Shown here: positions 3,001-63,356 of the stretch, in pieces
How the letters are laid out: each line of letters begins with the position of its first letter
How positions within the stretch are numbered: the stretch's first letter is position 1
Assembly (NCBI GenBank): GCA_000004985.1
Contig: GG738858.1
Origin: Naegleria gruberi
Taxonomy: Eukaryota
Strand: one strand, 5' to 3'
DNA: 64,000 nucleotides
Position numbers and translations under genes: made by a program
Notes under the pieces: model-generated
Seen by the model: the letters and a program-made list of their open reading frames with translations, nothing else
Databases searched by the model: none
What the model was told of the DNA's origin: nothing

Positions 3001-6000
3001 NNNNNNNNNNNNNNNNNNNNNNNNNNNNNNNNNNNNNNNNNNNNNNNNNNNNNNNNNNNNNNNNNNNNNNNNNNNNNNNNNNNNNNNNNNNNNNNNNNNN
3101 NNNNNNNNNNNNNNNNNNNNNNNNNNNNNNNNNNNNNNNNNNNNNNNNNNNNNNNNNNNNNNNNNNNNNNNNNNNNNNNNNNNNNNNNNNNNNNNNNNNN
3201 NNNNNNNNNNNNNNNNNNNNNNNNNNNNNNNNNNNNNNNNNNNNNNNNNNNNNNNNNNNNNNNNNNNNNNNNNNNNNNNNNNNNNNNNNNNNNNNNNNNN
3301 NNNNNNNNNNNNNNNNNNNNNNNNNNNNNNNNNNNNNNNNNNNNNNNNNNNNNNNNNNNNNNNNNNNNNNNNNNNNNNNNNNNNNNNNNNNNNNNNNNNN
3401 NNNNNNNNNNNNNNNNNNNNNNNNNNNNNNNNNNNNNNNNNNNNNNNNNNNNNNNNNNNNNNNNNNNNNNNNNNNNNNNNNNNNNNNNNNNNNNNNNNNN
3501 NNNNNNNNNNNNNNNNNNNNNNNNNNNNNNNNNNNNNNNNNNNNNNNNNNNNNNNNNNNNNNNNNNNNNNNNNNNNNNNNNNNNNNNNNNNNNNNNNNNN
3601 NNNNNNNNNNNNNNNNNNNNNNNNNNNNNNNNNNNNNNNNNNNNNNNNNNNNNNNNNNNNNNNNNNNNNNNNNNNNNNNNNNNNNNNNNNNNNNNNNNNN
3701 NNNNNNNNNNNNNNNNNNNNNNNNNNNNNNNNNNNNNNNNNNNNNNNNNNNNNNNNNNNNNNNNNNNNNNNNNNNNNNNNNNNNNNNNNNNNNNNNNNNN
3801 NNNNNNNNNNNNNNNNNNNNNNNNNNNNNNNNNNNNNNNNNNNNNNNNNNNNNNNNNNNNNNNNNNNNNNNNNNNNNNNNNNNNNNNNNNNNNNNNNNNN
3901 NNNNNNNNNNNNNNNNNNNNNNNNNNNNNNNNNNNNNNNNNNNNNNNNNNNNNNNNNNNNNNNNNNNNNNNNNNNNNNNNNNNNNNNNNNNNNNNNNNNN
4001 NNNNNNNNNNNNNNNNNNNNNNNNNNNNNNNNNNNNNNNNNNNNNNNNNNNNNNNNNNNNNNNNNNNNNNNNNNNNNNNNNNNNNNNNNNNNNNNNNNNN
4101 NNNNNNNNNNNNNNNNNNNNNNNNNNNNNNNNNNNNNNNNNNNNNNNNNNNNNNNNNNNNNNNNNNNNNNNNNNNNNNNNNNNNNNNNNNNNNNNNNNNN
4201 NNNNNNNNNNNNNNNNNNNNNNNNNNNNNNNNNNNNNNNNNNNNNNNNNNNNNNNNNNNNNNNNNNNNNNNNNNNNNNNNNNNNNNNNNNNNNNNNNNNN
4301 NNNNNNNNNNNNNNNNNNNNNNNNNNNNNNNNNNNNNNNNNNNNNNNNNNNNNNNNNNNNNNNNNNNNNNNNNNNNNNNNNNNNNNNNNNNNNNNNNNNN
4401 NNNNNNNNNNNNNNNNNNNNNNNNNNNNNNNNNNNNNNNNNNNNNNNNNNNNNNNNNNNNNNNNNNNNNNNNNNNNNNNNNNNNNNNNNNNNNNNNNNNN
4501 NNNNNNNNNNNNNNNNNNNNNNNNNNNNNNNNNNNNNNNNNNNNNNNNNNNNNNNNNNNNNNNNNNNNNNNNNNNNNNNNNNNNNNNNNNNNNNNNNNNN
4601 NNNNNNNNNNNNNNNNNNNNNNNNNNNNNNNNNNNNNNNNNNNNNNNNNNNNNNNNNNNNNNNNNNNNNNNNNNNNNNNNNNNNNNNNNNNNNNNNNNNN
4701 NNNNNNNNNNNNNNNNNNNNNNNNNNNNNNNNNNNNNNNNNNNNNNNNNNNNNNNNNNNNNNNNNNNNNNNNNNNNNNNNNNNNNNNNNNNNNNNNNNNN
4801 NNNNNNNNNNNNNNNNNNNNNNNNNNNNNNNNNNNNNNNNNNNNNNNNNNNNNNNNNNNNNNNNNNNNNNNNNNNNNNNNNNNNNNNNNNNNNNNNNNNN
4901 NNNNNNNNNNNNNNNNNNNNNNNNNNNNNNNNNNNNNNNNNNNNNNNNNNNNNNNNNNNNNNNNNNNNNNNNNNNNNNNNNNNNNNNNNNNNNNNNNNNN
5001 NNNNNNNNNNNNNNNNNNNNNNNNNNNNNNNNNNNNNNNNNNNNNNNNNNNNNNNNNNNNNNNNNNNNNNNNNNNNNNNNNNNNNNNNNNNNNNNNNNNN
5101 NNNNNNNNNNNNNNNNNNNNNNNNNNNNNNNNNNNNNNNNNNNNNNNNNNNNNNNNNNNNNNNNNNNNNNNNNNNNNNNNNNNNNNNNNNNNNNNNNNNN
5201 NNNNNNNNNNNNNNNNNNNNNNNNNNNNNNNNNNNNNNNNNNNNNNNNNNNNNNNNNNNNNNNNNNNNNNNNNNNNNNNNNNNNNNNNNNNNNNNNNNNN
5301 NNNNNNNNNNNNNNNNNNNNNNNNNNNNNNNNNNNNNNNNNNNNNNNNNNNNNNNNNNNNNNNNNNNNNNNNNNNNNNNNNNNNNNNNNNNNNNNNNNNN
5401 NNNNNNNNNNNNNNNNNNNNNNNNNNNNNNNNNNNNNNNNNNNNNNNNNNNNNNNNNNNNNNNNNNNNNNNNNNNNNNNNNNNNNNNNNNNNNNNNNNNN
5501 NNNNNNNNNNNNNNNNNNNNNNNNNNNNNNNNNNNNNNNNNNNNNNNNNNNNNNNNNNNNNNNNNNNNNNNNNNNNNNNNNNNNNNNNNNNNNNNNNNNN
5601 NNNNNNNNNNNNNNNNNNNNNNNNNNNNNNNNNNNNNNNNNNNNNNNNNNNNNNNNNNNNNNNNNNNNNNNNNNNNNNNNNNNNNNNNNNNNNNNNNNNN
5701 NNNNNNNNNNNNNNNNNNNNNNNNNNNNNNNNNNNNNNNNNNNNNNNNNNNNNNNNNNNNNNNNNNNNNNNNNNNNNNNNNNNNNNNNNNNNNNNNNNNN
5801 NNNNNNNNNNNNNNNNNNNNNNNNNNNNNNNNNNNNNNNNNNNNNNNNNNNNNNNNNNNNNNNNNNNNNNNNNNNNNNNNNNNNNNNNNNNNNNNNNNNN
5901 NNNNNNNNNNNNNNNNNNNNNNNNNNNNNNNNNNNNNNNNNNNNNNNNNNNNNNNNNNNNNNNNNNNNNNNNNNNNNNNNNNNNNNNNNNNNNNNNNNNN

Positions 6001-9000
6001 NNNNNNNNNNNNNNNNNNNNNNNNNNNNNNNNNNNNNNNNNNNNNNNNNNNNNNNNNNNNNNNNNNNNNNNNNNNNNNNNNNNNNNNNNNNNNNNNNNNN
6101 NNNNNNNNNNNNNNNNNNNNNNNNNNNNNNNNNNNNNNNNNNNNNNNNNNNNNNNNNNNNNNNNNNNNNNNNNNNNNNNNNNNNNNNNNNNNNNNNNNNN
6201 NNNNNNNNNNNNNNNNNNNNNNNNNNNNNNNNNNNNNNNNNNNNNNNNNNNNNNNNNNNNNNNNNNNNNNNNNNNNNNNNNNNNNNNNNNNNNNNNNNNN
6301 NNNNNNNNNNNNNNNNNNNNNNNNNNNNNNNNNNNNNNNNNNNNNNNNNNNNNNNNNNNNNNNNNNNNNNNNNNNNNNNNNNNNNNNNNNNNNNNNNNNN
6401 NNNNNNNNNNNNNNNNNNNNNNNNNNNNNNNNNNNNNNNNNNNNNNNNNNNNNNNNNNNNNNNNNNNNNNNNNNNNNNNNNNNNNNNNNNNNNNNNNNNN
6501 NNNNNNNNNNNNNNNNNNNNNNNNNNNNNNNNNNNNNNNNNNNNNNNNNNNNNNNNNNNNNNNNNNNNNNNNNNNNNNNNNNNNNNNNNNNNNNNNNNNN
6601 NNNNNNNNNNNNNNNNNNNNNNNNNNNNNNNNNNNNNNNNNNNNNNNNNNNNNNNNNNNNNNNNNNNNNNNNNNNNNNNNNNNNNNNNNNNNNNNNNNNN
6701 NNNNNNNNNNNNNNNNNNNNNNNNNNNNNNNNNNNNNNNNNNNNNNNNNNNNNNNNNNNNNNNNNNNNNNNNNNNNNNNNNNNNNNNNNNNNNNNNNNNN
6801 NNNNNNNNNNNNNNNNNNNNNNNNNNNNNNNNNNNNNNNNNNNNNNNNNNNNNNNNNNNNNNNNNNNNNNNNNNNNNNNNNNNNNNNNNNNNNNNNNNNN
6901 NNNNNNNNNNNNNNNNNNNNNNNNNNNNNNNNNNNNNNNNNNNNNNNNNNNNNNNNNNNNNNNNNNNNNNNNNNNNNNNNNNNNNNNNNNNNNNNNNNNN
7001 NNNNNNNNNNNNNNNNNNNNNNNNNNNNNNNNNNNNNNNNNNNNNNNNNNNNNNNNNNNNNNNNNNNNNNNNNNNNNNNNNNNNNNNNNNNNNNNNNNNN
7101 NNNNNNNNNNNNNNNNNNNNNNNNNNNNNNNNNNNNNNNNNNNNNNNNNNNNNNNNNNNNNNNNNNNNNNNNNNNNNNNNNNNNNNNNNNNNNNNNNNNN
7201 NNNNNNNNNNNNNNNNNNNNNNNNNNNNNNNNNNNNNNNNNNNNNNNNNNNNNNNNNNNNNNNNNNNNNNNNNNNNNNNNNNNNNNNNNNNNNNNNNNNN
7301 NNNNNNNNNNNNNNNNNNNNNNNNNNNNNNNNNNNNNNNNNNNNNNNNNNNNNNNNNNNNNNNNNNNNNNNNNNNNNNNNNNNNNNNNNNNNNNNNNNNN
7401 NNNNNNNNNNNNNNNNNNNNNNNNNNNNNNNNNNNNNNNNNNNNNNNNNNNNNNNNNNNNNNNNNNNNNNNNNNNNNNNNNNNNNNNNNNNNNNNNNNNN
7501 NNNNNNNNNNNNNNNNNNNNNNNNNNNNNNNNNNNNNNNNNNNNNNNNNNNNNNNNNNNNNNNNNNNNNNNNNNNNNNNNNNNNNNNNNNNNNNNNNNNN
7601 NNNNNNNNNNNNNNNNNNNNNNNNNNNNNNNNNNNNNNNNNNNNNNNNNNNNNNNNNNNNNNNNNNNNNNNNNNNNNNNNNNNNNNNNNNNNNNNNNNNN
7701 NNNNNNNNNNNNNNNNNNNNNNNNNNNNNNNNNNNNNNNNNNNNNNNNNNNNNNNNNNNNNNNNNNNNNNNNNNNNNNNNNNNNNNNNNNNNNNNNNNNN
7801 NNNNNNNNNNNNNNNNNNNNNNNNNNNNNNNNNNNNNNNNNNNNNNNNNNNNNNNNNNNNNNNNNNNNNNNNNNNNNNNNNNNNNNNNNNNNNNNNNNNN
7901 NNNNNNNNNNNNNNNNNNNNNNNNNNNNNNNNNNNNNNNNNNNNNNNNNNNNNNNNNNNNNNNNNNNNNNNNNNNNNNNNNNNNNNNNNNNNNNNNNNNN
8001 NNNNNNNNNNNNNNNNNNNNNNNNNNNNNNNNNNNNNNNNNNNNNNNNNNNNNNNNNNNNNNNNNNNNNNNNNNNNNNNNNNNNNNNNNNNNNNNNNNNN
8101 NNNNNNNNNNNNNNNNNNNNNNNNNNNNNNNNNNNNNNNNNNNNNNNNNNNNNNNNNNNNNNNNNNNNNNNNNNNNNNNNNNNNNNNNNNNNNNNNNNNN
8201 NNNNNNNNNNNNNNNNNNNNNNNNNNNNNNNNNNNNNNNNNNNNNNNNNNNNNNNNNNNNNNNNNNNNNNNNNNNNNNNNNNNNNNNNNNNNNNNNNNNN
8301 NNNNNNNNNNNNNNNNNNNNNNNNNNNNNNNNNNNNNNNNNNNNNNNNNNNNNNNNNNNNNNNNNNNNNNNNNNNNNNNNNNNNNNNNNNNNNNNNNNNN
8401 NNNNNNNNNNNNNNNNNNNNNNNNNNNNNNNNNNNNNNNNNNNNNNNNNNNNNNNNNNNNNNNNNNNNNNNNNNNNNNNNNNNNNNNNNNNNNNNNNNNN
8501 NNNNNNNNNNNNNNNNNNNNNNNNNNNNNNNNNNNNNNNNNNNNNNNNNNNNNNNNNNNNNNNNNNNNNNNNNNNNNNNNNNNNNNNNNNNNNNNNNNNN
8601 NNNNNNNNNNNNNNNNNNNNNNNNNNNNNNNNNNNNNNNNNNNNNNNNNNNNNNNNNNNNNNNNNNNNNNNNNNNNNNNNNNNNNNNNNNNNNNNNNNNN
8701 NNNNNNNNNNNNNNNNNNNNNNNNNNNNNNNNNNNNNNNNNNNNNNNNNNNNNNNNNNNNNNNNNNNNNNNNNNNNNNNNNNNNNNNNNNNNNNNNNNNN
8801 NNNNNNNNNNNNNNNNNNNNNNNNNNNNNNNNNNNNNNNNNNNNNNNNNNNNNNNNNNNNNNNNNNNNNNNNNNNNNNNNNNNNNNNNNNNNNNNNNNNN
8901 NNNNNNNNNNNNNNNNNNNNNNNNNNNNNNNNNNNNNNNNNNNNNNNNNNNNNNNNNNNNNNNNNNNNNNNNNNNNNNNNNNNNNNNNNNNNNNNNNNNN

Positions 9001-38306: not shown

Positions 38307-39165
38307 AATTTTTTAAACAAAGAATAAACATTTTATTTGTATATTTACACTACATTAAATAATAAATTAATAATATTAATTAAATTAAATATTAAATTAA
38401 TAATATTAATTAAATTAAATAATAATACTAATATTAATTAATAAATTAAATATTAAATATTAAAGATAATAATTATTATTTTTTAATCTATTTTCATAAT
38501 GTAATAATTGTAATTCAAAACCAGTATTAGGTTGTACAATATTTCTTTTTTGTTTAACGAATTGTAAAGTATTAAAATAAGACCATTGATTTTTTCTCAT
38601 TAAATATGCAATTAAAATGGAAGCACTTCTACTTTTACCTTTCATACAATGTATTAAAACATTTTCATTATTATTTAAACATTTATCAATATAATTAAAT
38701 GATTCATCAAATGTATGATCTATTTGTTCATCTGACATGTCATATAAATGTAAATTTAAATATGAAAATCCTTCATTAGGATAAAATGGTTCTAATGATT
38801 TTACACAAGTTACAATATTTGTTATATTATGATTTTTTAATTCAGGTACATTCATTGCATCATTTATATCTCCTAAATATAAATTATCAGTTATTTTAGA
38901 GGCTAAAAAATTATTTGAATATGGTAAATAATATCTAACTTGTTGATGGGCTTGATAATAATATGATAATACTGATCGGAATATTGATGATTTTGTATAT
39001 TTTACATTATTATTTGTATTATTATTTGTATTGGTATTAATAGTTTGATCATCAGTTGATTGATCAGTAATAGTTGTTGTTGTTGGAGTGGTTGGAGTGG
39101 TTGGAGTATTATTTGAAGCCATTTTTTTTTTAAATGAATTTATTAATAGAAATATCTATTTATTG
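38307..39165. repeat. Tandem direct repeat, copy A (high-identity core: 3' flank + DUSP CDS + ~45 bp upstream of its ATG)
   Basis: Near-identical to 39986..40835. The AT-rich block 38327..38459 is base-for-base identical to 39999..40138. The copy is truncated on the left by the N gap. Confidence 0.9.
38460..39122 (-). CDS. Dual-specificity protein phosphatase (DUSP family), copy 1, 220 aa, single exon
   Basis: ORF with the catalytic motif VLIHCMKGKSRSASILIAYLM (HCxxGxxRS P-loop of Cys-based PTP/DUSP). The N-terminus has a Thr/Pro/Asn-rich low-complexity region. The ATG is preceded by an A10 run. Confidence 0.85.
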   Translation of the reverse strand: MASNNTPTTPTTPTTTTITDQSTDDQTINTNTNNNTNNNVKYTKSSIFRSVLSYYYQAHQQVRYYLPYSNNFLASKITDNLYLGDINDAMNVPELKNHNITNIVTCVKSLEPFYPNEGFSYLNLHLYDMSDEQIDHTFDESFNYIDKCLNNNENVLIHCMKGKSRSASILIAYLMRKNQWSYFNTLQFVKQKRNIVQPNTGFELQLLHYENRLKNNNYYL

Positions 39166-39719: not shown

Positions 39720-39769
39720 NNNNNNNNNNNNNNNNNNNNNNNNNNNNNNNNNNNNNNNNNNNNNNNNNN
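39720..39769. other. Assembly gap (50 N), plus a single ambiguous base at 39812
   Basis: N-run inside the diverged 5' flank of DUSP copy 1. Confidence 0.99.
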
Positions 39770-39985: not shown

Positions 39986-40835
39986 AAATTTTTAAACAAA
40001 GAATAAACATTTTATTTGTATATTTACACTACATTAAATAATAAATTAATAATATTAATTAAATTAAATATTAAATTAATAATATTAATTAAATTAAATA
40101 ATAATACTAATATTAATTAATAAATTAAATATTAAATATTAAAGATAATAATTATTATTTTTTAATCTATTTTCATAATGTAATAATTGTAATTCAAAAC
40201 CAGTATTAGGTTGTACAATATTTCTTTTTTGTTTAACGAATTGTAAAGTATTAAAATAAGACCATTGATTTTTTCTCATTAAATATGCAATTAAAATGGA
40301 AGCACTTCTACTTTTACCTTTCATACAATGTATTAAAACATTTTCATTATTATTTAAACATTTATCAATATAATTAAATGATTCATCAAATGTATGATCT
40401 ATTTGTTCATCTGACATGTCATATAAATGTAAATTTAAATATGAAAATCCTTCATTAGGATAAAATGGTTCTAATGATTTTACACAAGTTACTATATTTG
40501 TTATATTATGATTTTTTAATTCAGGTACATTCATTGCATCATTTATATCTCCTAAATATAAATTATCAGTTATTTTAGAGGCTAAAAAATTATTTGAATA
40601 TGGTAAATAATATCTAACTTGTTGATGGGCTTGATAATAATATGATAATACTGATCGGAATATTGATGATTTTGTATATTTTACATTATTATTTGTATTA
40701 TTATTTGTATTGGTATTAATAGTTTCATCATCAGTTGATCGATCAGTAATAGTTATTGTTGTTGGAGTGGTTGGAGTATTATTTGAAGCCATTTTTTTTT
40801 AAATGAATTTATTAATAGAAATATCTATTTTATTG
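39986..40835. repeat. Tandem direct repeat, copy B (high-identity core)
   Basis: Same as copy A, offset by 1679 bp (CDS starts 38460 vs 40139). Diverged homology (~70%, many indels) continues at 40836..~41690 vs 39166..39719. Confidence 0.9.
40139..40792 (-). CDS. Dual-specificity protein phosphatase (DUSP family), copy 2, 217 aa
   Basis: About 97-98% identical to copy 1. It differs by a 9-nt indel in the TTPTT repeat and a few substitutions. It carries the same HCMKGKSRS active site. Confidence 0.85.
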   Translation of the reverse strand: MASNNTPTTPTTITITDRSTDDETINTNTNNNTNNNVKYTKSSIFRSVLSYYYQAHQQVRYYLPYSNNFLASKITDNLYLGDINDAMNVPELKNHNITNIVTCVKSLEPFYPNEGFSYLNLHLYDMSDEQIDHTFDESFNYIDKCLNNNENVLIHCMKGKSRSASILIAYLMRKNQWSYFNTLQFVKQKRNIVQPNTGFELQLLHYENRLKNNNYYL

Positions 40836-47855: not shown

Positions 47856-48181
47856 TTATTTTTTATTTAATAATTCTAATAATTGTTCTTGTTTGTTTTT
47901 TAATAATTCCTTTCTCTTTCTCTTCATAATTTTAACATTATCTTTATAAATTGTTAATTTCTTTGAATTATCTTTTTTAACTTTATCTGCAAGTGATTGT
48001 TTTTCATGTTTCTTTTCATCTCTTTTTTTTCTTCTTTCTAATTTTGATTGTTTCTTTTTATCAGATATTTCCTGTATTGAAGAAGAATCCGATGATGATT
48101 GTTCTGTTTGTTGATTTATTTCAATTGATTGTCTATATTCATCAAAGAGACGAAGTTGAAATTCTAAAAGTGATTTACTCA
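47856..48181 (-). CDS. 3' end of a gene encoding a Lys-rich coiled-coil C-terminus (partial; 5' part lies in the N gap)
   Basis: Hand translation of the minus strand gives an open frame: SKSLLEFQLRLFDEYRQSIEINQQTEQSSSDSSSIQEISDKKKQSKLERRKKRDEKKHEKQSLADKVKKDNSKKLTIYKDNVKIMKRKRKELLKNKQEQLLELLNKK*. The stop is at 47856..47858. The frame is open up to the gap edge. No listed ORF covers this because it has no Met. Confidence 0.55.
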
Positions 48182-49230
48182 NNNNNNNNNNNNNNNNNNN
48201 NNNNNNNNNNNNNNNNNNNNNNNNNNNNNNNNNNNNNNNNNNNNNNNNNNNNNNNNNNNNNNNNNNNNNNNNNNNNNNNNNNNNNNNNNNNNNNNNNNNN
48301 NNNNNNNNNNNNNNNNNNNNNNNNNNNNNNNNNNNNNNNNNNNNNNNNNNNNNNNNNNNNNNNNNNNNNNNNNNNNNNNNNNNNNNNNNNNNNNNNNNNN
48401 NNNNNNNNNNNNNNNNNNNNNNNNNNNNNNNNNNNNNNNNNNNNNNNNNNNNNNNNNNNNNNNNNNNNNNNNNNNNNNNNNNNNNNNNNNNNNNNNNNNN
48501 NNNNNNNNNNNNNNNNNNNNNNNNNNNNNNNNNNNNNNNNNNNNNNNNNNNNNNNNNNNNNNNNNNNNNNNNNNNNNNNNNNNNNNNNNNNNNNNNNNNN
48601 NNNNNNNNNNNNNNNNNNNNNNNNNNNNNNNNNNNNNNNNNNNNNNNNNNNNNNNNNNNNNNNNNNNNNNNNNNNNNNNNNNNNNNNNNNNNNNNNNNNN
48701 NNNNNNNNNNNNNNNNNNNNNNNNNNNNNNNNNNNNNNNNNNNNNNNNNNNNNNNNNNNNNNNNNNNNNNNNNNNNNNNNNNNNNNNNNNNNNNNNNNNN
48801 NNNNNNNNNNNNNNNNNNNNNNNNNNNNNNNNNNNNNNNNNNNNNNNNNNNNNNNNNNNNNNNNNNNNNNNNNNNNNNNNNNNNNNNNNNNNNNNNNNNN
48901 NNNNNNNNNNNNNNNNNNNNNNNNNNNNNNNNNNNNNNNNNNNNNNNNNNNNNNNNNNNNNNNNNNNNNNNNNNNNNNNNNNNNNNNNNNNNNNNNNNNN
49001 NNNNNNNNNNNNNNNNNNNNNNNNNNNNNNNNNNNNNNNNNNNNNNNNNNNNNNNNNNNNNNNNNNNNNNNNNNNNNNNNNNNNNNNNNNNNNNNNNNNN
49101 NNNNNNNNNNNNNNNNNNNNNNNNNNNNNNNNNNNNNNNNNNNNNNNNNNNNNNNNNNNNNNNNNNNNNNNNNNNNNNNNNNNNNNNNNNNNNNNNNNNN
49201 NNNNNNNNNNNNNNNNNNNNNNNNNNNNNN
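48182..49230. other. Assembly gap (1049 N)
   Basis: N-run. The supplied ORFs made of X residues (47993..49309, 48175..49236, 48179..49246) are artefacts of this gap. Confidence 0.99.
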
Positions 49231-50296: not shown

Positions 50297-51878
50297 GTAT
50301 TATTATTAGTATTACTAGTATTAGTATTATTATTATTATTGTTAATATTTTTAATATAATTTTTTAATAATTGAATAGATTGATCAAATTTCTTTTGTTT
50401 AAAATATAAATGTGATAAAATTAAAGTTGGAATTTCTGAATTATTATACTAAATAAATTAAATAATTCATTTTGAATAATTTTTTCACATTCATCAAATT
50501 TACCTAAATGTAATTGTAATAAACAATTATTTAAAGTAACACCTCTAATTTGTTCAGTTGTTAATTTACCTTGTAATTTATCTTGATAAGCATGTTTTAA
50601 TTTCTTTTGAGCTTCCAAATCAAAATGTGTTGTATTACCATTATTAGAATTACTATTATTAGTAGTTACATCTAAAATAGCAACAAGATTATTAGCAGCA
50701 ACTGCACCTGCAACTGTATCTTTAGATTGTGTAAAAACTTGTTCAAATAATTTTTTAGAAACATCAACTTGTCCATTTAAATATTTAACATAAGCTAATT
50801 GTACTAAAATGGAAGAAATTTCATTTGTATCTTCAATTTTACATAATTTTTGTGCAAATTCTAAATATTTCTCAGCTTGTTCATAATCTTTTAATCCAAT
50901 AGATNNNNNNNNNNNNNNNNNNNNNNNNNNNNNNNNNNNNNNNNNNNNNNNNNNNNNNNNNNNNNNNNNNNNNNNNNNNNNNNNNNNNNNNNNNNNNNNN
51001 NNNNNNNNNNNNNNNNNNNNNNNNNNNNNNNNNNNNNNNNNNNNNNNNNNNNNNNNNNNNNNNNNNNNNNNNNNNNNNNNNNNNNNNNNNNNNNNNNNNN
51101 NNNNNNNNNNNNNNNNNNNNNNNNNNNNNNNNNNNNNNNNNNNNNNNNNNNNNNNNNNNNNNNNNNNNNNNNNNNNNNNNNNNNNNNNNNNNNNNNNNNN
51201 NNNNNNNNNNNNNNNNNNNNNNNNNNNNNNNNNNNNNNNNNNNNNNNNNNNNNNNNNNNNNNNNNNNNNNNNNNNNNNNNNNNNNNNNNNNNNNNNNNNN
51301 NNNNNNNNNNNNNNNNNNNNNNNNNNNNNNNNNNNNNNNNNNNNNNNNNNNNNNNNNNNNNNNNNNNNNNNNNNNNNNNNNNNNNNNNNNNNNNNNNNNN
51401 NNNNNNNNNNNNNNNNNNNNNNNNNNNNNNGCTAATAATAATTCATTAGTATTATTTAATTCATTTCTATTAGATTGAATAATTTTCAAGGCTTCCTCTG
51501 CTTTATTTAATCTATACAAGGAATAAATCTTTTGAAAATTAGTGGATTGCAAATTTTCAATAACCTTGTTAAATTCTCCTTTTTGAATTTGATTAACAAT
51601 TTTTAATTGTTTTAATTGATTATTATTCTTATCATTGGATAATACTATTATTATTATTATATGATGAAGATGATCAAGATGGTAATGTTGATGATTAATA
51701 TGAAAGACGGAGAAGAAGATTAATACAGATAAGATTAAAATGATGATGAATATATATTCAACTACTACTAATATAACAACATACACTTTTCCAATGTAGA
51801 ATGAATTAAATCTTCATCTTCATCTTCGATGGCTTGTTTTAATTGTTGATAATTGGACAAGAGATTCTTTGGTGCCAT
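49347..51878 (-). CDS. srp72: Signal recognition particle 72 kDa subunit (SRP72), multi-segment model: exon 1 51785..51878, intron 51645..51784, exon 2 from 51644 into the gap, then 50894 down to 49347; interrupted by an N gap and three frame disruptions
   Basis: Exon 1 (MAPKNLLSNYQQLKQAIEDEDEDLIHSTLEK + GTATGT donor) was found by hand. The TPR-like blocks IYSLYRLNKAEEALKIIQS, AGAVAANNLVAIL, ELFNLFSIII, IPTLILSHLYFKQKKFDQSIQLLKNYIK and MKIDDMNSALEML...AEKYCKDL align along SRP72. The C-terminal tail KKKQRKKRRNKLP...SRWETKKKHS...KKKKKK* matches the SRP72 basic RNA-binding tail. The supplied ORFs 49347..49679, 49646..50143, 50421..50618 and 50881..51786 are fragments of this gene in different frames. 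Confidence 0.75.
50262..50345. repeat. (ATT)n/(AAT)n trinucleotide microsatellite inside the SRP72 coding region (poly-Asn tract)
   Basis: A perfect (att)9 at 50267..50293 flanked by imperfect att/agt repeats. The reading frame changes across it. Confidence 0.85.
50895..51430. other. Assembly gap (536 N) inside the SRP72 gene
   Basis: N-run. Confidence 0.99.
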
Positions 51879-53481: not shown

Positions 53482-53654
53482 TATTTAATACATTTTAATA
53501 TATTTTAATATTTAAAATAATTGTTTTTTTTAGTGTTTTTAAAAATCATTGTTGTAATCCATGATGAATTAATATGAGTGAAACTTTGCCAAGTCAATGT
53601 TGATGAGTCATAAAATGTTTCATGTGAAAGCAAACTTTCAAAAAGAGAAGGAAA

Positions 53655-53670
53655 GGGGATCCTCTAGAGT
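53655..53670. other. Cloning-vector polylinker remnant (GGGGATCCTCTAGAGT = SmaI half-site + BamHI + XbaI of pUC18/19-type MCS) at a contig end
   Basis: Exact 16-nt match to the pUC multiple cloning site downstream of a blunt SmaI insertion. It sits immediately before the N gap and is GC-rich relative to its surroundings. Confidence 0.7.
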
Positions 53671-54048
53671 NNNNNNNNNNNNNNNNNNNNNNNNNNNNNN
53701 NNNNNNNNNNNNNNNNNNNNNNNNNNNNNNNNNNNNNNNNNNNNNNNNNNNNNNNNNNNNNNNNNNNNNNNNNNNNNNNNNNNNNNNNNNNNNNNNNNNN
53801 NNNNNNNNNNNNNNNNNNNNNNNNNNNNNNNNNNNNNNNNNNNNNNNNNNNNNNNNNNNNNNNNNNNNNNNNNNNNNNNNNNNNNNNNNNNNNNNNNNNN
53901 NNNNNNNNNNNNNNNNNNNNNNNNNNNNNNNNNNNNNNNNNNNNNNNNNNNNNNNNNNNNNNNNNNNNNNNNNNNNNNNNNNNNNNNNNNNNNNNNNNNN
54001 NNNNNNNNNNNNNNNNNNNNNNNNNNNNNNNNNNNNNNNNNNNNNNNN
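53671..54048. other. Assembly gap (378 N)
   Basis: N-run. The supplied ORF 53638..56127 runs through it as X residues. Confidence 0.99.
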
Positions 54049-56127
54049 TCTTTTATGATTTGATTTAAAATTTAAATTTAAAGAAAATAAATCTTCACTT
54101 TTTAAAATTTTAGAATTTCCATTTTTAATTAAAATATTTTTCATTGTTAAAGGTAAAATTAAATTTTTTAATTCATTTAAATTTAAATTTAAATTTTCTA
54201 AAATTTCAAAACATTTAATTTCCAAATTAGTATTAAATAATAATAAAATTAAACATTGATATTCATTTACATGTAAATCATATTCACTTCCAAATCTGGC
54301 AATTAATTGACATGTACCAAGTGAATGTATCCATTTTAATATTCTATTTTGAGTAATTGAATTATAAAAATTTAAAAATAAATTTAAACAATTATTAAAT
54401 TCATTTGGTAATTTTAATTTTAAATTTAATTGAATATAAATGGAAGGCCAAATTCCATTTGTTAAAATTTGTGGATTAAATTCTATTTTATTATTATCAT
54501 TAGTTATATTATTATTTCCATTTATATTATTAATTAAATAATTTTTAAATTTAAATTTTAATTCATTTGAATTATTTAAATCTTTAATCATTCCTTCTAA
54601 TTTAAAAGTAAATGAATTTCCCATTTTTAATTTTAATTTATAAATTAATTGTTTTTCCAATTCAATTTCTTGATTTTTAATTAATTTTTTACATAAAAAT
54701 CTTTTAAAAAATTCTAAAAATAAATCTTTATCATTTAAATAGGAAAATAATAATAAAATATTTTCAATATTTAAATTAAATTCAAAATATTTAACTAGAA
54801 TTTCAGGAAAATCTAAATTTTCATTTACTAAATTTGTAAATGACTGAAATAAAAATTGTTGAAAATAAAAATTATCTTTAAATTCAAATTTAATTAAATT
54901 ACTAAATTTAGTATTTAATTTTAATAAATTTGTAATATATTCATTTGAATCATTTTTAATTAATTCTTTTCCTTCTTTAATTATTACTTGTTTCATTGAA
55001 TTTGCTAATTTTGGTAATTCATTTACAATTTCAAATAATTTAAATAAGATTTTTAATTCTTTAATATTAAAATTATTAAATATTTCAATTGATTCTAATA
55101 ATAAAATTTCTAAATTATTTAAAATTAATTCTTGATTTAAATTTTTAAATAATTTTTTAATGGTTGAATTTGGAAAGAAAAAGGAATTTTTATCTTCAAA
55201 AATTAAAATATTTTCAATTTCTTTAAATAAATAATTATTTTCTAATTTCCATTTTTGATTTAATTGTTTAAAATATAAATTTGATAAATTTAAAAATTCA
55301 TTTTCAAAATCCAAGTAAATTGAATTTTCCTTATATAGATTTAATTCATTTGATAATTCAATTAAATATAAAATTCCATTTTTTAATAAATTTTCATTAA
55401 TAATTTCAAAATTTCTTTTTTTTTCATATTTTTCCAAAATTAATTTAGAAAAATTATTTTTAATTTCCAAATAAATAATTTTAAAATAATTTTCAATTGC
55501 AATTTGTTTTAAATTTGATTTTTGAAATTGTTCTATAAAAGATCTTTCAATGTAATTAAATAATTTTGTAAAATATTTAATAATAATTAAATAATCTTTC
55601 CATTTTTGTATACATTGATTTAAAAATAAATCTCCATTTAAATTTTTTAATTGATTTAAATTATTATTTAAAAATTTTATAATAATTTTTTCATATTTAA
55701 TATAAATTAATTCTTTTGAAATTTCTAAATTTAAACATAAATTATAAATGGATGAATAAATAATTAAATAGTCTTGACTTGATGAATTTAAATTTTCTAA
55801 AAATTGTAAAATTCCTTTTTTAATTATTTTCCATTGTTTTTTAAATAATTCATATTCATCATTGTTATTATTATCACTACTAGATGAATTATTTGAAATA
55901 CTATTGAAAAGTTTAATTTTCTTTTCTTGATGAATAAATTCATTACTTGTTGATTCAAAAGTTGATGATTGTAATAAATTAGAGTTGACTTGATGATGAT
56001 CGGAATGTGATGGTGATGATAAGGAACATGATGACAATGTATTATTGATAGTATCCTCATCATCATCTAAACAAGAAGATAATTGACAAGATTTTCGTTT
56101 TTTAGGAACATTTCTTCTGAAATTCAT
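54049..56127 (-). CDS. Cullin-family protein (E3 ubiquitin-ligase scaffold), N-terminal ~690 aa present; C-terminal cullin-homology/neddylation region lost in the gap
   Basis: Open frame from the ATG at 56127 (MNFRRNVPKKRK...). Cullin signature blocks: DKDLFLEFFKRFLCKKLI (cf. DKDVFE.YYK..LA.RLL), GNSFTFKLEGMIKDL (cf. CG..FTSKLEGMF.DM) and ILKWIHSLGTCQLIARFGSEYDLHVNEYQCLILLLFN (cf. L.W...LG.c.L...F......L.VS..Q..VLLLFN). Confidence 0.7.
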
Positions 56128-56220
56128 TTTTTATGTATTGGAAATTATTTACAATTCATCTCTTTCAATGACATTTAAATATCACCAAATGATGATGATG
56201 ATGATAAACAAGGATGAGAT

Positions 56221-57060
56221 TTAATTTGTTTGTAACTTATTTTTCAATTGTTCAATTTCTGATTGTAATTGTAAAACTTCTTCTTCATGAGTTTGTTGCA
56301 TCACTTCACGTAAATGTTTATCTGCTTGTTTTTGTAAATTTAATTGATTTTCAAAATCAGATTTCATCATTTCCTTTTCTTTTGCTAATGAAAGAATCTT
56401 ATTTCTAAATACATTTTTAGTAGTTTCTAAAATTGTTATTTGTTGTTTCAATGAATCAATTGTTAATCTAGTATCACTATTAATACTCAATGTATTATAC
56501 ATTAATTGATAATATGTTTTATCATTAGTTAATTCTATAATTTCATTTTCTAATATTTTAATCTTTTCCAAATATGGTTGAATAATTGCTTCTTCTTCAA
56601 CTATTTCATATTGAATAATTGTATTTTGTGTACTAGTTGTTTCGAGTACTGGTTGTATTATAGTGTTAGTAATAGTAGTAGATGTTGTATTAATTGTTTG
56701 ATCTAAAAGTATTGTTGGTGAATTAATAGGTGATGATGAATTAACTCGATTAACTTTAAAAGTTTGATCTTCAAAGATGGCAAATTTCTTCTTCTTTGAT
56801 GGACTTTTATATTGACCGGATGGTGGTGGTGATATAGTAGTGGATTGTAATTTTCTCTTCAGATCAAGTTTGTTCGAAGGCTTTAAAGAAAATTCCTTCT
56901 TCATAGGCTTTGAATTTTGTTGTTGTTGTGACTTGAGTCCTGTTGGCGTGATATTTTCCTTATCAATGATGGTGGTTTTCTTATTGGCGAGTTGAAGACT
57001 AGTGCCTCTCATTGTGGCCATTAGAGGATTAGTTGGTTGGAGGGCTTGTTGTTGAGACAT
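56221..57060 (-). CDS. Hypothetical protein, 279 aa: Ser/Thr/Gln-rich N-terminus with a KEN motif (IDKENITP) and a C-terminal coiled-coil
   Basis: Long ORF with coding-like composition, starting aaaaaATGtctcaa. There is heptad-like periodicity in the last ~110 aa. No recognisable catalytic domain. Confidence 0.55.
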   Translation of the reverse strand: MSQQQALQPTNPLMATMRGTSLQLANKKTTIIDKENITPTGLKSQQQQNSKPMKKEFSLKPSNKLDLKRKLQSTTISPPPSGQYKSPSKKKKFAIFEDQTFKVNRVNSSSPINSPTILLDQTINTTSTTITNTIIQPVLETTSTQNTIIQYEIVEEEAIIQPYLEKIKILENEIIELTNDKTYYQLMYNTLSINSDTRLTIDSLKQQITILETTKNVFRNKILSLAKEKEMMKSDFENQLNLQKQADKHLREVMQQTHEEEVLQLQSEIEQLKNKLQTN

Positions 57061-57155
57061 TTTTTTATCTGTGATATTAAATTGATTATTTTTTGAAATT
57101 ATTTAACGTTAGATTTTGGCGGCAAGTTTAACCGCTTAAAATAACTACAAAAAAA
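57061..57155. promoter_or_regulatory. Short divergent promoter region between the minus-strand gene starting at 57060 and the plus-strand gene starting at 57156
   Basis: A 95-bp AT-rich spacer between two divergently oriented start codons. This is inferred from gene arrangement only. Confidence 0.3.
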
Positions 57156-59541
57156 ATGAGTGCAAACGTTCCAAGAGAAATTCTCAAGTGGATGCAATCA
57201 TTGGACTTGTCGTATTCGATAAAGAATATGAGAAGAGATTTTTCAAATGGTTTTCTTATAGCAGAAATTATTTCTCGATATTTTTCTCAAGAGGTTGAAA
57301 TGCACAGCTTTGATATCGGTGTTGGAGTTAAGGCTAAAATGGATAATTGGCAATTATTAGAAAAATTCTTTAGAAAACATGGACTAAATATTTCAAGAAA
57401 AGTTATTGATGATTTAATTGCATGTAGACCAAATTCTCTGAATGTTGTTTTGGAAGAAGTTTATACATTTCTCACAGAAAAGAGGTAAGTTTTCAGTAAT
57501 AAGAATTTCTTGATCCGAATTTAAAACCAGTGTCAAGAAGGCTAAACCAATCAGACTTCCTACAGTTAATGTACCTAATTTTGCTAAACCAACAGTCTCT
57601 AAAACTAATAAGGATGATGGAAGAGCAGCTGTTTCAAGTTTTGTCATGTCAAAGAGAAATCAAATTTCATCAGCTAAAGGAAATTCATCTAACAATAATA
57701 CTAATAATGAAATACCTTCATTGGAAATTACATTTAGAGATAGTAAATCATCAAGTACTCAACGTTCTAAATCATCAAATCAACAACAACAAATGGCCGC
57801 CACTGCATTATTAGCAAATATTTTCATTGATATGAATGATATTATTGAGGCAGCATCATGTAATGAATCGGATATCATTTCAGAGTATAGATTGGACAGA
57901 GGAAATTTAATTGCATCATTTTTGGAGAAGATTAATTCAATTCCTGTTGAACATTCTGAAGGAATTCTTAATAGTATAAAGGAAAGGATTCCTCTCTATT
58001 CTGAAATGATGTCAGCTCAACCAAAAGATTTTTGGAAGTTTATGAACATTTTCATTCCAGCTGTAAGAAATTCATCTGCAACTGTGTTTCAAATATTGTG
58101 CTCTATTTTAATAACATTGGGTATTGAAATGGTATCGAGAGATCCTGAATCAACTTGGGAAGCTGTTGAAGATTTTGCATTGGATAAATTTGTTGAAACA
58201 ATTTCAACTCAAGCAAGTAAGAGAGAAGAAATTGTTCAAATTGTTTACAGTTTTACAACATCAGATTTCCACACCCATAAGAGAGTGATTTCAAAGTTAG
58301 TTGAAAAATGCTCTAAATACGAGTCACATTTAATAATTCATATCCTAGCTCTTTTGGTAAGACATGAGTCATCTCTTTTAACAATATATGATTCAGGAAA
58401 TGGACCAATTTTCAATGATGATCAAGTTGACTTTTTCGAAGTATACATGAATCATGCTATTAGTGGATTGAGTAATCCATCTCCAAAAGTTAGAGCTTCA
58501 AGTTTATCCATTGTTCATACATTATTATCATATGACGATATTACATTTGATAATAAGAATGAAACAAAATCTAAGAGAGATAATAGTGAAAGTGAAGTCA
58601 ACTTTTCCAATCAACCTTTATTATACATTATGGAAAATTTATGGTCCCAAAGTATTGAACCATTGGAAAATGATAATTGGTGGGAAGTAACAGCTCAATT
58701 AATTGTTTTAACCTCTAAGTGTTTGACACAAGTCAAAAAATTATACATGGTAGATAATATACAAGAGCATGAAGACATCTTGATAGCGTTCTTAGAAAGA
58801 CTGTTAGCTAGAGAATTGAGCTCAACATTGAAGAGTATCATTCTCTCATATGTTAGCTCTCATCTTAAAACATATAGTGACAGATTAACATCTGTTTACC
58901 TTGACATTCTCTTCTCTATAACAGAAGAAGAAAGAGTTGCACTTTTGGAACAACCTTCAAATCATGTTGAATTATTACAAGTTGGAAATAGTCAATACAA
59001 GTTCCCAATCATGAGTATACCATTTGAATGGGACAGTTTAACGGTTGCAAAGGTAGTTTCTGATCAAGTTGTAAATCTAGATCACTTGGAAGTTGAACAT
59101 TACGATGTATTGAATGCTTGTATATCTATAGCACAATTAGATCAACCTGAAGATGATAAGACATTTAAGGATTCATGTCCATCTGAATGGTTGGAGATTT
59201 ATGATCGTCTTCAAAATCACTTCTTTGTTGGATTGGTTGATGAAGAATTGTGCGAGATGGCTGCACAGTTGATAGTTAAATTCTTCTCAGTTTTGAAAAA
59301 GGAAGTTGTTAAATCAATGGCTGCCCAACTTGTTAACTCTATTGAAATAATCTATGGAGGTAACCAATTTGCACACCAACAAGCCATTTTTTCTCAGTTC
59401 TTAATAGACGTCTACTCTTTGGGAAGTCCATTCAGTCAACCATTAATGAAGCTTGCCAGTTCACTCATGGAACAATCGCATCTAACAACAAATCAACATT
59501 TAGGAAAGTTTGTATCCTTTGTGAGGAATAACATGATGTAA
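57156..59541 (+). CDS. Protein with an N-terminal SPEF1/CLAMP-type calponin-homology-like domain (PF06294/DUF1042 type) followed by a ~630-aa helical-repeat region; exon 1 57156..57484, intron starting at the GTAAGT donor 57485, exon 2 ending 59541 (acceptor uncertain; 57531, 57555, 57624 and 57639 are in-frame candidates)
   Basis: Exon 1 EILKWMQSLDLSYSIKNMRRDFSNGFLIAEIISRYFSQEVEMHSFD...ISRKVIDDLIACRPNSLNVVLEEVYTFLTEK aligns closely with SPEF1 N-termini (RDFSDGVLVAEVIKFYFPKMVEMHNY...CAPGVVELVL). A canonical AG|GTAAGT donor follows directly. The downstream frame (supplied ORF 57646..59541) is open upstream of its Met back to 57514. This supports joining the two. Confidence 0.6.
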
Positions 59542-60643
59542 ATTCATTGTAAATAAAAACAATAAAAACCAAACAAGGTTTAGAAAGTAATACAATGGAA
59601 AAGCATTTCTTAATAAGTCATCATTAATAATTGCCCAAATAAGGACATTTTAGGTTATCACTCTATTAATTTTCGCATTTTACTTTCAAAACCTAAATTT
59701 GATCTTTAAAATCCAAAAATTAAGCAAAGATCCCTTCACCTTACAAGAATGGTAATGCTAGTCCCACACGGTAATATGACCTTAAATTACAGTAGCCAAA
59801 TTAGTCAACTATTAAAAAATTGAGAAAAGATCGGATGGCCCCACTATTCAAAACTGTTTTAAGGATTGATCAATGCATTCACAAGCCTTTTAGGATGCCC
59901 AACTATTTAAACAGTCCAAACACACCACAAGGTTTCCTCAATAGCAACACAGTGTGCACCATTCAACAACTAACAACAACGACTTTAGTAATTGCAGTGG
60001 ATACCCTAAGGTTTACTGATTCTCTACACTATGGAGGTGATTACTCTTAGAAAAATTAACAACACTCAACACACTACTGTTGTTGAATTTAATACACAGA
60101 TACGTTGTGTGTATTCTCCACTTTAACAATATCATCATCAAGATTGGCATCATTTACATTGTTTATCTAATAAGAGTATATTGAATACTAAAATCGATTA
60201 TTACCTATAAAGTATATTAAGGACCAGATTCAACTCAAAAATATATTGTTCTTACTCCCATAAATAATTCTAAGCGTTGAACCTGTCTAAATATAATAGC
60301 CATCAACATCATTTAACTGTTTAGCTATTTAACTACAATACATAAATTCTAGTAAAATAGTAAACTCATCCGAATATTTCATCAGAGTTTACTAATCCTC
60401 TCAAAGCGAATCCTATCCCACACTTGTCAAGATAGATAACACGAGTGCGTGCTTTGTGAATCATCTAGGAACAATTAAGGCAACGCAACAAACTAATAGC
60501 AACATAATTACCTTGTGTGTTCTTGGCGCGCGCAACTTCCTCTGATATCTACAAACAAGGCTTATTCTCTCATTCAAACCCTCAACAAACGCATTGTTGG
60601 TTTTCGTTGGAATAATAACATACATTTATATAATTATTGAAAA

Positions 60644-63356
60644 ATGAGTCGAGTCACACCACTATCACCCTCACAGCAGAGTCAAATAACGCCCTCAACA
60701 ACGACATTATCCTTTAAATCTTCGGATTCTAAGGGTCAACAGATGAATAATTCTGCTAGTACAATTCAAATATTAAATTCAAGACCAATATCAGCATCAG
60801 GTACGCAAAGAAGTAATTCACTTTTTGATGAAACTTACATTACTTCAAACTCTGAATTTGAAGCGGAGAGAATTGATAAACAAATGCCAGTCATGATGAG
60901 ATTAGAATCAGCAGTATTTGAGCCTAAGAAGAATACTTATGATCCAAATCAATTTTCATCAAGTACTTTAAATTTAAATTCTAAAAGTGAAACTAATCTA
61001 TCAACTATGGCTTTAAATGATCCAACTCCATCTGAAACAGGTAGCATTTATTCATTAGCTTCAAGTCCAAGAAGTTTTTATTTTAGTTTTAGATGTTCTT
61101 TATTATGTTCAATGTTTTTTTTAATTATTTCACCAATTTTATTATTATTAGCAATTTCCATAACCTTTTCTTTATTAACTTCAGTTGAAGTTGAAAAACA
61201 AGTTGTTTTATTATCTTTATATAGAGCTGAATTATATGTTTCTGATTTTTTAGATCTAGGAAGGAAATTAACAGTTTTACAAAAACAAATGATTACTGAT
61301 AATTATTATTCCAAGTTTGAAACTGATGATTATTTCAACACTTTTAATAATTACAAATCAATTTTAAAATCACTTGCTGCAGTTCACAAACATAATAAGG
61401 CTTCTTTCTTTTTATTTGATTTTACTTCTCGCAATGCTGATTACATTTATGTAAATACAAAACAAACCGAAACAAGAATTTGGAATTCCAAATTATATGA
61501 TAATCAACAAGAATATTATTACATGTCAAATATTGAATCTTTACCATATTCCAACATTACTAAATATAACTTGACGAAGGATTTAAAATTTGATGTTATT
61601 GGATATATTGAACAAGAATTTTGGAATCCGTTCGCAGAAACATATTTTAAATTATCACAATCGTATGATAAAGCTCTTGTACCAATGTCAGTACAAACAC
61701 AAGGTGCTGACAGTGTTGAAGAACGAGTTTACATTTGTTATCAGGAGAATGTCTATTCTCAAATTAATGAAACAAAATTCCTAGGCGTTACAAGTGCAAA
61801 TGTTGTGGTGAGAGAATTGGCTTCCTTTATTAAGAATTATCATGTTTCAGCAAGAGGTTTTGCACTTGTTGTAGAAATGAATTATGATCAAGAATCAAAT
61901 ACATTGAAAAAGAGAATGGTTGCCTATAAAGATTATAATCAATTGGCAAAGAAAGATCCAGAAAGTACAGGTGGTTATAAAATACCAGACGCAGAAGAAA
62001 TTGAAGATTTGTTTTTAAGATTTGTTATCACACAGATTATACCTAATAATGTTCATGATGTGAATATCAAATCAGAAGAATTGTTTAGATTCATGTATGG
62101 AGGTGAATCTTATTTAATGGCTTTTAAGATTGTTTCATCTTCAAAAGATTTAAACATGCAATGGTTGACTATTATTTGTGCTCCTGAAATTGGTATGTTT
62201 TTTTATTATCAAAAATTGAATCATATTTGAAATGTATATTGTTGAATTGTGTAATATAGATTTTATTGGTAATTTACTTTTATTAACAGGTCTTAATATT
62301 GGTGTTAGTATATTAGCATTCTGTTTTTCAATGGTATTTGTATTCTATTTTGCCTCTTCAATTTCTAAACCATTATTATATTTCTCATCTGAGAGTAAAG
62401 CCATTTCAAATCTTAAAGTACATCGTGGAGGAATTATCAAGACTAGAATTCGTGAAATTTTACTTTTATCTGAAGCTTTTGAAAAGATGAAGACAACATT
62501 GAGATCATTTATGAGATTTGTTCCTCGTCAATTAATTGTGGAAATGGTAGAAAAGGGAATTGAAATGAAATTAGGTGGTCATATTCATGAAAATATTACA
62601 ATTTTATTTTCAGATGTTGAAGACTTTACAACATGGAGTGAAAAATTAGAACCACAATTTTTAATTAGACATGTTTCTGAATATTTCCATGTCATGACAG
62701 AAGAAATTGTGAATGAAGAAGGTACACTTGATAAATATATAGGTGATGCAGTAATGGCATTCTGGGGAGCTCCTAATTTTATGTATGACACTTCAATGAG
62801 AGCTTGTAGAGCTGCTATTAAATGTCAAGAAAGAATGGACAAGTTGAGAAAAATATGGGAGAAACAAAACAAACCTTTATTTAAATGTAGAATTGGATTA
62901 CATACTGGTTCATGTATTATTGGTAATATTGGTTCTTTATGGAGATTAAATTATACTGCTTTGGGTGATTCTGTTAATTTAGCATCAAGATTGGAAGGTC
63001 AAAATAAGTTTTATGGAACTGAAATTTTAATTAGTCAAGATACTTATAAGAATGTTGCTAGTAGTTTTAATTGTAGAAGAATTGATACAGTTGGTGTAAA
63101 GGGTAAATCGGTTGGTATTACTATTTATGAATTAATTTCAAGAAAGGAAGAAACTATACCAAATCCTAAAATTGAAACACGTTTGAAATTAACTCCAATT
63201 TATGAATCTGCACTTGCTGAATATCAATTAGGAAGATTTACTGAAGCACTTAAATTGTTAATGACAAGATGTCAAGATATTGATTGTAATGACTTGGCTA
63301 CTCAAACGTTAATTGATAGATGTAAAGAATACATTCAATATCCACCATATAATTGA
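60644..63356 (+). CDS. acgA: Receptor-type class III adenylyl cyclase with extracellular sensor domain between two hydrophobic segments (ACG-like, ~870-880 aa); exon 1 60644..62192, intron from the GTATGT donor at 62193, exon 2 from 62260 or 62290 (both acceptors in frame) to 63356
   Basis: Exon 1 has a Ser/Thr-rich N-terminus, a hydrophobic segment FYFSFRCSLLCSMFFLIISPILLLLAISITFSLL, then a ~330-aa presumably extracellular domain. Exon 2 has a second hydrophobic segment LNIGVSILAFCFSMVFVFYFASS, a cyclase transducer-like linker (FVPRQLIVEMVEKG) and a complete catalytic domain with metal-binding Asp (ILFSDVEDFT, YIGDAVMAF), purine-selecting Lys (DKYIGD) and the transition-state Asn/Arg (GDSVNLASRLEG). 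Confidence 0.7.

Follow-up and report, generated by a model that had tools for sequence, protein, structure and literature searches.

A stretch of 64,000 nucleotides (nt) of GenBank contig GG738858.1 (assembly GCA_000004985.1; hereafter the window) carries on its plus strand, at 60644-63356, a real and well-formed two-exon gene. We find that this gene in all likelihood encodes a bacterial-type receptor adenylyl cyclase of the plasma membrane, with a double-Cache sensor, and that it is resident in the genome of an amoeba of the Naegleria/Willaertia group.

The assignment of the sensor to the double-Cache fold draws on unbroken homology to a bacterial protein, the alignment of a hallmark motif, and a predicted structure. 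Specifically, the whole protein has its best database homologue in P0001, which carries dCache_1 (E 1e-16), plus MCP-like_PDC_1, and aligns with the window protein without a break from sensor residue 379 through the second transmembrane (TM) segment, linker, and cyclase domain to the tail (BLASTP, 32% over 474 aa, E 3e-73). The column of the hallmark DPRxRPWY, at which the alignment is moderately reliable, reads YDPRLYEYF in Willaertia magna, WDPRGDEYY in Naegleria lovaniensis, and WNPFAETYF in the window, and a VSARG...A.V strand pair was also aligned with three bacterial dCache proteins. AlphaFold2 (AF2) models the sensor with a pLDDT of 85.5 and a pTM of 0.83 (single-sequence pLDDT 33) from a 7-sequence alignment; three of its rows were bacterial dCache sequences and may have biased the model towards this fold. 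In the model, two tandem PDC (PAS-like) modules come after a long N-terminal helix, the whole set between two TM helices, and the top 50 Foldseek matches in the Protein Data Bank (PDB) are overwhelmingly bacterial dCache or tandem-Cache ligand-binding domains (best E 3e-9). As modelled, the sensor is thus a double Cache; the earlier note on this DNA had expected similarity to a sensor domain here, and one is present, though dCache and not CHASE. In the dCache_1AA motif of the 2022 work by Gumerov and colleagues, the Arg and Trp of DPRxRPWY reportedly bind the carboxylate of the amino-acid ligand. Since both are replaced in the window sensor, its ligand is probably not an amino acid.

Pfam recognises the catalytic domain as Guanylate_cyc (PF00211, cut-off 21.9 bits), scoring residues 626-801 at 82.9 bits with E=2.8e-23, and 55 cyclase sequences in the PDB match it at E<=0.01. 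The closest solved structure is the class IIIb CyaB of P. aeruginosa (3r5g, E=1.5e-31); further bacterial adenylyl cyclases come next, and these nearest structures we take to be IIIb enzymes. Six catalytic residues align residue for residue with 3r5g—i.e. D635 and D679 for metal, K675 (in DKYIGD) and T749 (in NYTALGD) for substrate selection, and N756 and R760 for the transition state—and the hexad is invariant in a 6-sequence alignment of the family. Agreement of this extent lies well outside what chance would give. In the subclassification of Linder and Schultz, the purine-selecting pair of class IIIb adenylyl cyclases is Lys with Thr or Ser in place of Asp. A single class III domain with all catalytic residues and a Lys/Thr class IIIb pattern had both been proposed from the sequence alone; Pfam and the catalytic-domain alignment bear out the two proposals, with K675/T749 rather than Glu/Cys, and a homodimeric type is predicted.

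The gene model behind this protein joins the plus-strand open reading frames (ORFs) 60644..62230 and 62232..63356, which adjoin at the locus. The earlier note had already proposed the two-exon structure, and had left the start codon and the choice between acceptors at 62259 and 62289 undecided. The ORFs, the donor, and the in-frame acceptors are all present, both ambiguities are real, and comparison with homologues settles each of them. Downstream of a stop, the earliest start in frame is the ATG at 60644, and we place the start there because the amoebal homologues have in common an N-terminal peptide of the form M-(S/T)-(K/R)-V-(H/T)-P: MSRVTP in the window, MSRVHP in N. lovaniensis (P0034), MKVHP in W. 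magna (P0032), and MTKVHP on the metagenome contig L002. From the GT donor at 62193, AG acceptors ending at 62259 or 62289 are both in frame and give 881 or 871 aa, respectively. With the acceptor at 62259, the junction reads APEI-DFIGNLLLLTGLNIGVS, for which the counterparts are DFNGNMVLL (N. lovaniensis), DFVSRMVML (W. magna), DFVGNVILL (L002), and DFIGNVLLL (metagenome contig L003). APEI-DF(I/V/N)(G/S) runs across the junction in all homologues, and bacterial relatives keep the stalk motif as APLEDFFGE or APLAEFTGF. An identical phase-1 intron position, after APEI-G, is found in 3 of the 4 homologues (N. lovaniensis L004, L002, with an intron of 37 nt, and L003), and W. magna, without an intron at APEI, reads straight through as APEIDFVS. 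Junction peptide and shared intron position therefore fix the acceptor as AG 62258-62259, with exon 2 starting at 62260, and the spliced gene (60644-62192 plus 62260-63356) encodes an 881-aa protein. Splicing to 62289 would instead remove 10 conserved stalk residues leading into TM2, DF(I/V)G among them, and that acceptor is rejected for this reason.

By Kyte-Doolittle hydropathy, the protein has exactly two strongly hydrophobic segments (approximately residues 151-179 and 519-549), with about 340 residues between them. From the Arg on the N-side of TM1 and the acidic residues on its C-side, we infer an N-in orientation; the charge pattern around both TMs and the three N-glycosylation sequons within the sensor (N304, N309, and N375) fit an N-in protein with its sensor outside. 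TM2 aligns with TM2 of the bacterial proteins P0001 and P0006, and has a K/R-rich flank on the predicted cytosolic side. Ahead of TM1, residues 1-143 contain 31% Ser plus Thr (17% in the whole protein), in an extension that the bacterial relatives lack and that is poorly conserved, with only the first 6 residues and a juxtamembrane SFRCSLL kept in the alignments. Beyond TM2, a P-L ... EI..L..AF..M...L pattern and the place between TM2 and the output domain fit a HAMP linker, and Pfam HAMP is found at E<=1 in 3 of 6 family members. The helical segment that follows, which we take to be the "cyclase transducer element", aligns with the linkers of a bacteriophytochrome-cyclase (6fht) and of bPAC (5m27), and every member of the 6-sequence alignment, eukaryotic or bacterial, has its S599 and P605. 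Hydropathy and Pfam thereby agree with the layout first read from the letters (S/T-rich N-terminus, TM, outside domain, TM, transducer, and one cyclase domain), the N-in, sensor-out topology being a prediction.

The receptor runs from an S/T-rich extension, predicted to be cytosolic, through TM1, a double-Cache domain with a predicted extracellular location, TM2, a HAMP-like four-helix linker, and a transducer helix to a class IIIb domain and a short helical tail. By analogy with single-domain class III cyclases and with dCache/HAMP receptors, two copies would pair as a homodimer, and two symmetric active sites would lie where they meet. On binding the membrane-distal Cache module, a small ligand from outside, or a physico-chemical cue, may displace TM2 together with the long stalk helix; the HAMP-like bundle (ISKPLL...REILLLSEAFEKMKTTL) and the transducer helix, with its invariant S599 and P605, would relay the shift, and the packing of the catalytic domains at the dimer interface would change, altering cAMP synthesis.

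Amoebal relatives were sought with the exon-1 sensor (residues 176-516) in a HMMER scan of 1.84 billion representative proteins, which returned only two: a hypothetical protein of W. magna (P0032, KAL9641840.1) and an exon-1-type ORF on L002 (P0033). A later profile search, using a bridging alignment, added the N. lovaniensis hypothetical protein C9374_008629 (P0034) and an exon-2-type ORF on L003 (P0035). When the full spliced protein was the query, the homologue search yielded bacterial cyclases alone and no amoebal orthologues, and a collection of 15 billion proteins holds no exact match to either gene model or to three neighbouring plus-strand ORFs. Over their full length, the four complete amoebal proteins are 44-50% identical to one another, and the window protein is closest to that of N. 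lovaniensis (50.3%). In a neighbor-joining (NJ) tree built from the proximal Cache module to the C-terminus of four amoebal and 18 bacterial sequences, the amoebal proteins are monophyletic in 100 of 100 bootstraps, with the window and N. lovaniensis proteins as sisters in 98 of 100.

The neighbourhood is also shared with N. lovaniensis: window 53638-59541 corresponds to 3144-7844 of PYSW02000035.1 (L004), and order and orientation are the same for four consecutive genes, with a cullin, a coiled-coil gene (27% identity), and two CH_2 exons upstream of the cyclase. The two CH_2 exons form a gene of the sperm-flagellar CH type, at 57156-57488 (87% identical over 57156-57485) and 57646-59541 (54%). 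This synteny identifies the locus as heterolobosean (Naegleria/Willaertia group) and not dictyostelid, and the window gene is the orthologue of C9374_008629. A dictyostelid host, perhaps with a sixth cyclase gained by horizontal transfer, which poly-Asn-rich proteins and AT-richness might suggest, is rejected on the same synteny.

Relatives in bacteria are numerous: among prokaryotes sampled at one genome per species, tblastn gave 596 confirmed loci. From the proximal Cache module to the end of the tail, the best match is in a metagenome-assembled genome (MAG) of Alphaproteobacteria (L005; 33% over residues 379-879). Proteins in these relatives are 690-770 aa long, and the amoebal ones add an S/T-rich, predicted cytosolic N-terminus of 70-150 aa. 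On the sequence tree, the monophyletic amoebal clade is placed within this large bacterial family; most likely, a single transfer from bacteria brought the gene into the lineage, and the N-terminal extension and the APEI intron were gained afterwards. Upadhyay et al. (2016) record a single Cache-containing "bacterial-type adenylate cyclase" in Naegleria, so this kind of cyclase was already known there, and M. tuberculosis Rv2435c is cited as a dCache cyclase (PMC4822843); the Naegleria protein in their Fig. 7 may be this orthologue.

Among the top bacterial matches are lineages associated with amoebae or protists, namely Fluoribacter gormanii (Legionellaceae), Holosporales, Coxiellaceae, and Chlamydiae. 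In the NJ tree, the bacterial branch nearest to the amoebal clade is a Holosporales MAG (L013, JAITFF010000073.1), a tentative lead only.

Several results weigh against a double-Cache adenylyl cyclase. The window sensor has no Pfam match at E<=10 and so none to dCache_1 (PF02743; gathering score 45 bits), a domain that stays below threshold in the orthologues as well (E 0.0028 and 17.7 bits in N. lovaniensis; E 0.053 in another), and a PDB sequence-profile search with the sensor alignment gave no match at E<=10. With the sensor alone, profile-profile comparison to P0001 is weak (hhalign E 0.007, probability 5%), and the bacterial sequences in the AF2 alignment bear on the modelled fold as stated above. 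Pfam HAMP (PF00672) reaches E 0.21 and 12.4 bits at residues 547-598, below its cut-off of 25. The predicted adenylyl (cAMP-making) specificity depends on two residues only, and about 10 conserved residues are lost from the end of the tail, which could leave this copy impaired.

The tail is the ground for one alternative. Bacterial tblastn matches extend to query residues 879-881, and the family alignment has a tail motif RC..(Y/F)I..PP..W.GV. Where the window reads PPYN[TGA], N. lovaniensis has PPDVW, W. magna PPENW, and L002 PPKEW, the column being taken from one alignment, and in PPPDDW (P0035 on L003) and PPGNDW (bacterial P0006) the Trp stands one residue later. The frame after the TGA is unrelated to the tails of the relatives. 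The stop could stem from a TGG-to-TGA change, from a sequencing error in a gappy draft, or from coincidence. Under the first of these, the window copy could be a decaying or impaired gene whose sensor has diverged beyond Pfam recognition; a stop at a conserved Trp position followed by unrelated sequence would be expected of such a gene, as would the lack of a dCache_1 match here when the N. lovaniensis orthologue still gives E 0.0028. However, the frame of 881 codons runs unbroken through a correctly placed intron, none of the six catalytic residues is lost, more than 60 family-invariant positions are kept, only some 10 terminal residues are missing, and the TGA could be a miscalled base, the draft assembly being full of gaps. 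We consider decay unlikely.

A guanylyl cyclase, or one of mixed specificity, is less probable still. PF00211 spans both activities, UniRef labels the N. lovaniensis orthologue "Guanylate cyclase domain-containing", and the substrate is predicted from a pair of positions. That pair is nevertheless Lys675/Thr749, not Glu/Cys, and the best solved relatives having the same pair are adenylyl cyclases (CyaB 3r5g, CyaB1-type 6fht, and CyaC 1wc0).

The gene had been filed in the earlier note as "ACG-type", after the Dictyostelium cyclase ACG (acgA), a germination-specific intramolecular osmosensor with a CHASE domain, and likened to the receptor cyclases of trypanosomatids and bacteria. The likeness to bacteria holds, through the collinear dCache-HAMP-class IIIb relatives. 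A search of the window sensor and its orthologues with profile models gave no CHASE match at E<=10. The ACG signature peptides FFLDIAGF and MKTWYLMG, which served as ACG-specific primers on other dictyostelids (PMC2535757), correspond in the window to LFSDVEDF (3 of 8 identities) and ITIYELIS (1 of 8), compared by eye with the published peptides. ACG, with its CHASE domain, is found only in dictyostelids (PMC4399386), whereas the neighbours of the window gene are syntenic with N. lovaniensis and every detectable relative is heterolobosean or bacterial. It is very improbable that the gene is an orthologue or close relative of ACG; judged by sequence, the window protein resembles ACG in layout but is not a member of its family, and a functional resemblance may or may not exist. 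An ACG-like layout alone does not make an ACG relative, and the misfiling is hereby corrected.

Finally, bacterial contamination mis-assembled into a eukaryotic scaffold, which the bacterial architecture and hundreds of bacterial relatives might suggest, is effectively refuted by synteny and the shared intron, since a spliceosomal-type GT-AG intron is common to three other amoebal loci, the gene is flanked by eukaryotic genes whose order is that of N. lovaniensis, and its GC content of 29% matches that of neighbouring genes.

The features of the bacterial-type cyclase gene and its predicted protein are listed in Table 1.

Table 1. Positions in the window of the cyclase gene, its exons, and the predicted protein features.
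Feature	Position	Strand	Details
Exon 1	60644..62192	+	codons 1-516 plus first base of codon 517; ATG context AAAAATG
S/T-rich N-terminal extension	60644..61093	+	residues 1-150; predicted cytosolic
TM segment 1	61094..61180	+	approximately residues 151-179; hydropathy up to 2.8
Predicted extracytoplasmic dCache_1-like sensor	61181..62192	+	approximately residues 180-516; runs on into DFIGN 62260-62274
Intron	62193..62259	+	67 nt, phase 1, GTATGT...ATATAG, 18% GC
Exon 2	62260..63356	+	includes the TGA stop
TM segment 2, core	62295..62357	+	approximately residues 529-549; by hydropathy
HAMP-like linker	62349..62504	+	residues 547-598; ISKPLL ... REILLLSEAFEKMKTTL
Helical transducer segment before the catalytic domain	62499..62585	+	LRSFMRFVPRQLIVEMVEKG...
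Class III (IIIb) nucleotidyl cyclase catalytic domain	62586..63113	+	residues 626-801
Catalytic codons	62613, 62733, 62745, 62955, 62976, 62988	+	D635, K675, D679, T749, N756, R760, in this order
C-terminal helical tail	63183..63353	+	approximately residues 825-881; conserved with bacterial relatives; ends PPYN
TGA stop	63354-63356	+	at the position of the conserved tail Trp in every orthologue examined

Beyond the cyclase, the gene that lies downstream (63558 onward) matches the opposite end of L004 (465-235), and a rearrangement has therefore occurred there. The W. magna homologue (L001, JBEGDK010000165.1, 10001-12574) is without the APEI intron and has two other short introns; its neighbours are unrelated (GINS PSF3, a TOG-domain protein, and a glycosyltransferase 61), and it is either a relocated orthologue or a paralogue. 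The contigs L002 (k141_149803) and L003 (k141_1112044) belong to one metagenome (ENA ERZ27315067), evidently from a sample with uncultured Naegleria-group amoebae, and carry two distinct cyclase homologues at 38-39% GC, both with an intron of about 36-37 nt after APEI-G. L003 is the closest known relative of window exon 2 (about 60% identity), and it adjoins an ionotropic-glutamate-receptor-like gene.

The window is 63% N (1-38306, plus 39720-39769, 48182-49230, 50905-51430, and 53671-54048), with real sequence from 38307 to 64000 at 25.5% GC, and the gaps interrupt the gene models of neighbours—i.e. the cullin and the ORFs at 47993 and 50881. GC content is strikingly uneven, at 14% in the cullin coding sequence (54049-56127, minus strand) and 29-32% in the CH_2 gene, the cyclase gene, and even the 1.1-kb spacer that separates the two (57156-63356). 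Two dual-specificity phosphatase genes (DSPc, E 1e-30) on the minus strand, at 38460-39122 and 40139-40792, flank a 50-N gap; across 857 bp their DNA is 98% identical, and the main difference between them is a Thr/Pro-rich N-terminal repeat. The pair arose by tandem duplication not long ago or else reflects an assembly artefact (haplotype duplication). Poly-Asn-rich proteins are present in this AT-rich window. With the cullin as query, the homologous-protein search gave no match, presumably as low-complexity words swamped the word index, and Rfam and tRNA scans of the real sequence of the window were empty.

Naegleria genomes encode roughly 80-100 cyclases. Here, one predicted double-Cache adenylyl cyclase of bacterial type appears conserved across the Naegleria/Willaertia group together with its intron and gene neighbourhood, and its start codon and splice site could be fixed by comparison alone. 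It is a tractable candidate for a receptor that links an extracellular signal to cAMP in amoebae related to the pathogen N. fowleri, and otherwise an expected kind of gene, a Cache-cyclase in Naegleria having been noted in 2016 (PMC4822843). As a more speculative idea, doubtful at present, the amoebal clade may have re-tuned the bacterial dCache to a cue specific to eukaryotes, and the receptor could pass a chemical or osmotic signal from the environment, by way of cAMP, to encystment or to amoeba-to-flagellate differentiation in Heterolobosea; it would then be an independent analogue of ACG obtained by horizontal transfer, possibly from an endosymbiont such as a member of the Holosporales. 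What suggests such re-tuning is that the amino-acid-binding residues are lost and the distal module is no longer recognised by sequence, yet conservation of the domain is strong in Naegleria, Willaertia, and uncultured relatives.

Compared with known systems, the window protein has in common with D. discoideum ACG a two-TM receptor layout, an extracellular tandem-PAS-like sensor (dCache as modelled here, CHASE, PF03924, in ACG), a single cytosolic cyclase domain, and an amoeba as host. The catalytic signature peptides differ, and ACG, compared through its published peptides and domains, is dictyostelid-only (PMC4399386, PMC2535757); no relationship is detectable beyond the generic PF00211 domain. 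The likeness to trypanosomatid receptor cyclases fails on both membrane topology and sensor, with two TMs here and a modelled sensor that is dCache and not like a periplasmic-binding protein. Trypanosomatid receptor adenylyl cyclases have a single TM and a large extracellular domain resembling periplasmic-binding proteins. P. aeruginosa CyaB (3r5g) has the same catalytic hexad, including the Thr at a purine-selecting position, and presumably differs outside the crystallised catalytic domain in its sensor, a multi-pass MASE-type membrane domain and not an extracellular dCache. The ligand-binding domains of dCache chemoreceptors (PctD 7prq, Tlp3 4xmq, PacA 7psg, and McpX 6d8v) have 10-14% sequence identity to the window sensor; their output is a methyl-accepting chemotaxis protein (MCP) signalling domain rather than a cyclase, and their ligand-binding residues are not kept in the window, so their ligand specificity is not transferable.

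The closest systems are those of the bacteria and of N. lovaniensis. Bacterial dCache_1-HAMP-class IIIb cyclases (P0001 and L005) are collinear with the window protein from TM1 to the PP..W.GV tail, at 32-33% identity from the proximal Cache module to the end, and share the K/T catalytic pattern and an AP.(E/D)(D/E)F motif entering TM2. By contrast, the amoebal genes are interrupted by introns, the divergence of the membrane-distal Cache module puts it out of reach of sequence models, and DPRxRPWY is degraded to WNPFAETYF in the window. C9374_008629 of N. lovaniensis differs from the window gene in retaining the tail Trp and a WDGVHRNHEK-type end where the window copy stops, in a dCache_1 score that is even lower for the window sensor, and in the GC content of the local genome (35.5% against 25.5%); it matches it in domain order, the MSRV.P start, intron position, and upstream neighbours.

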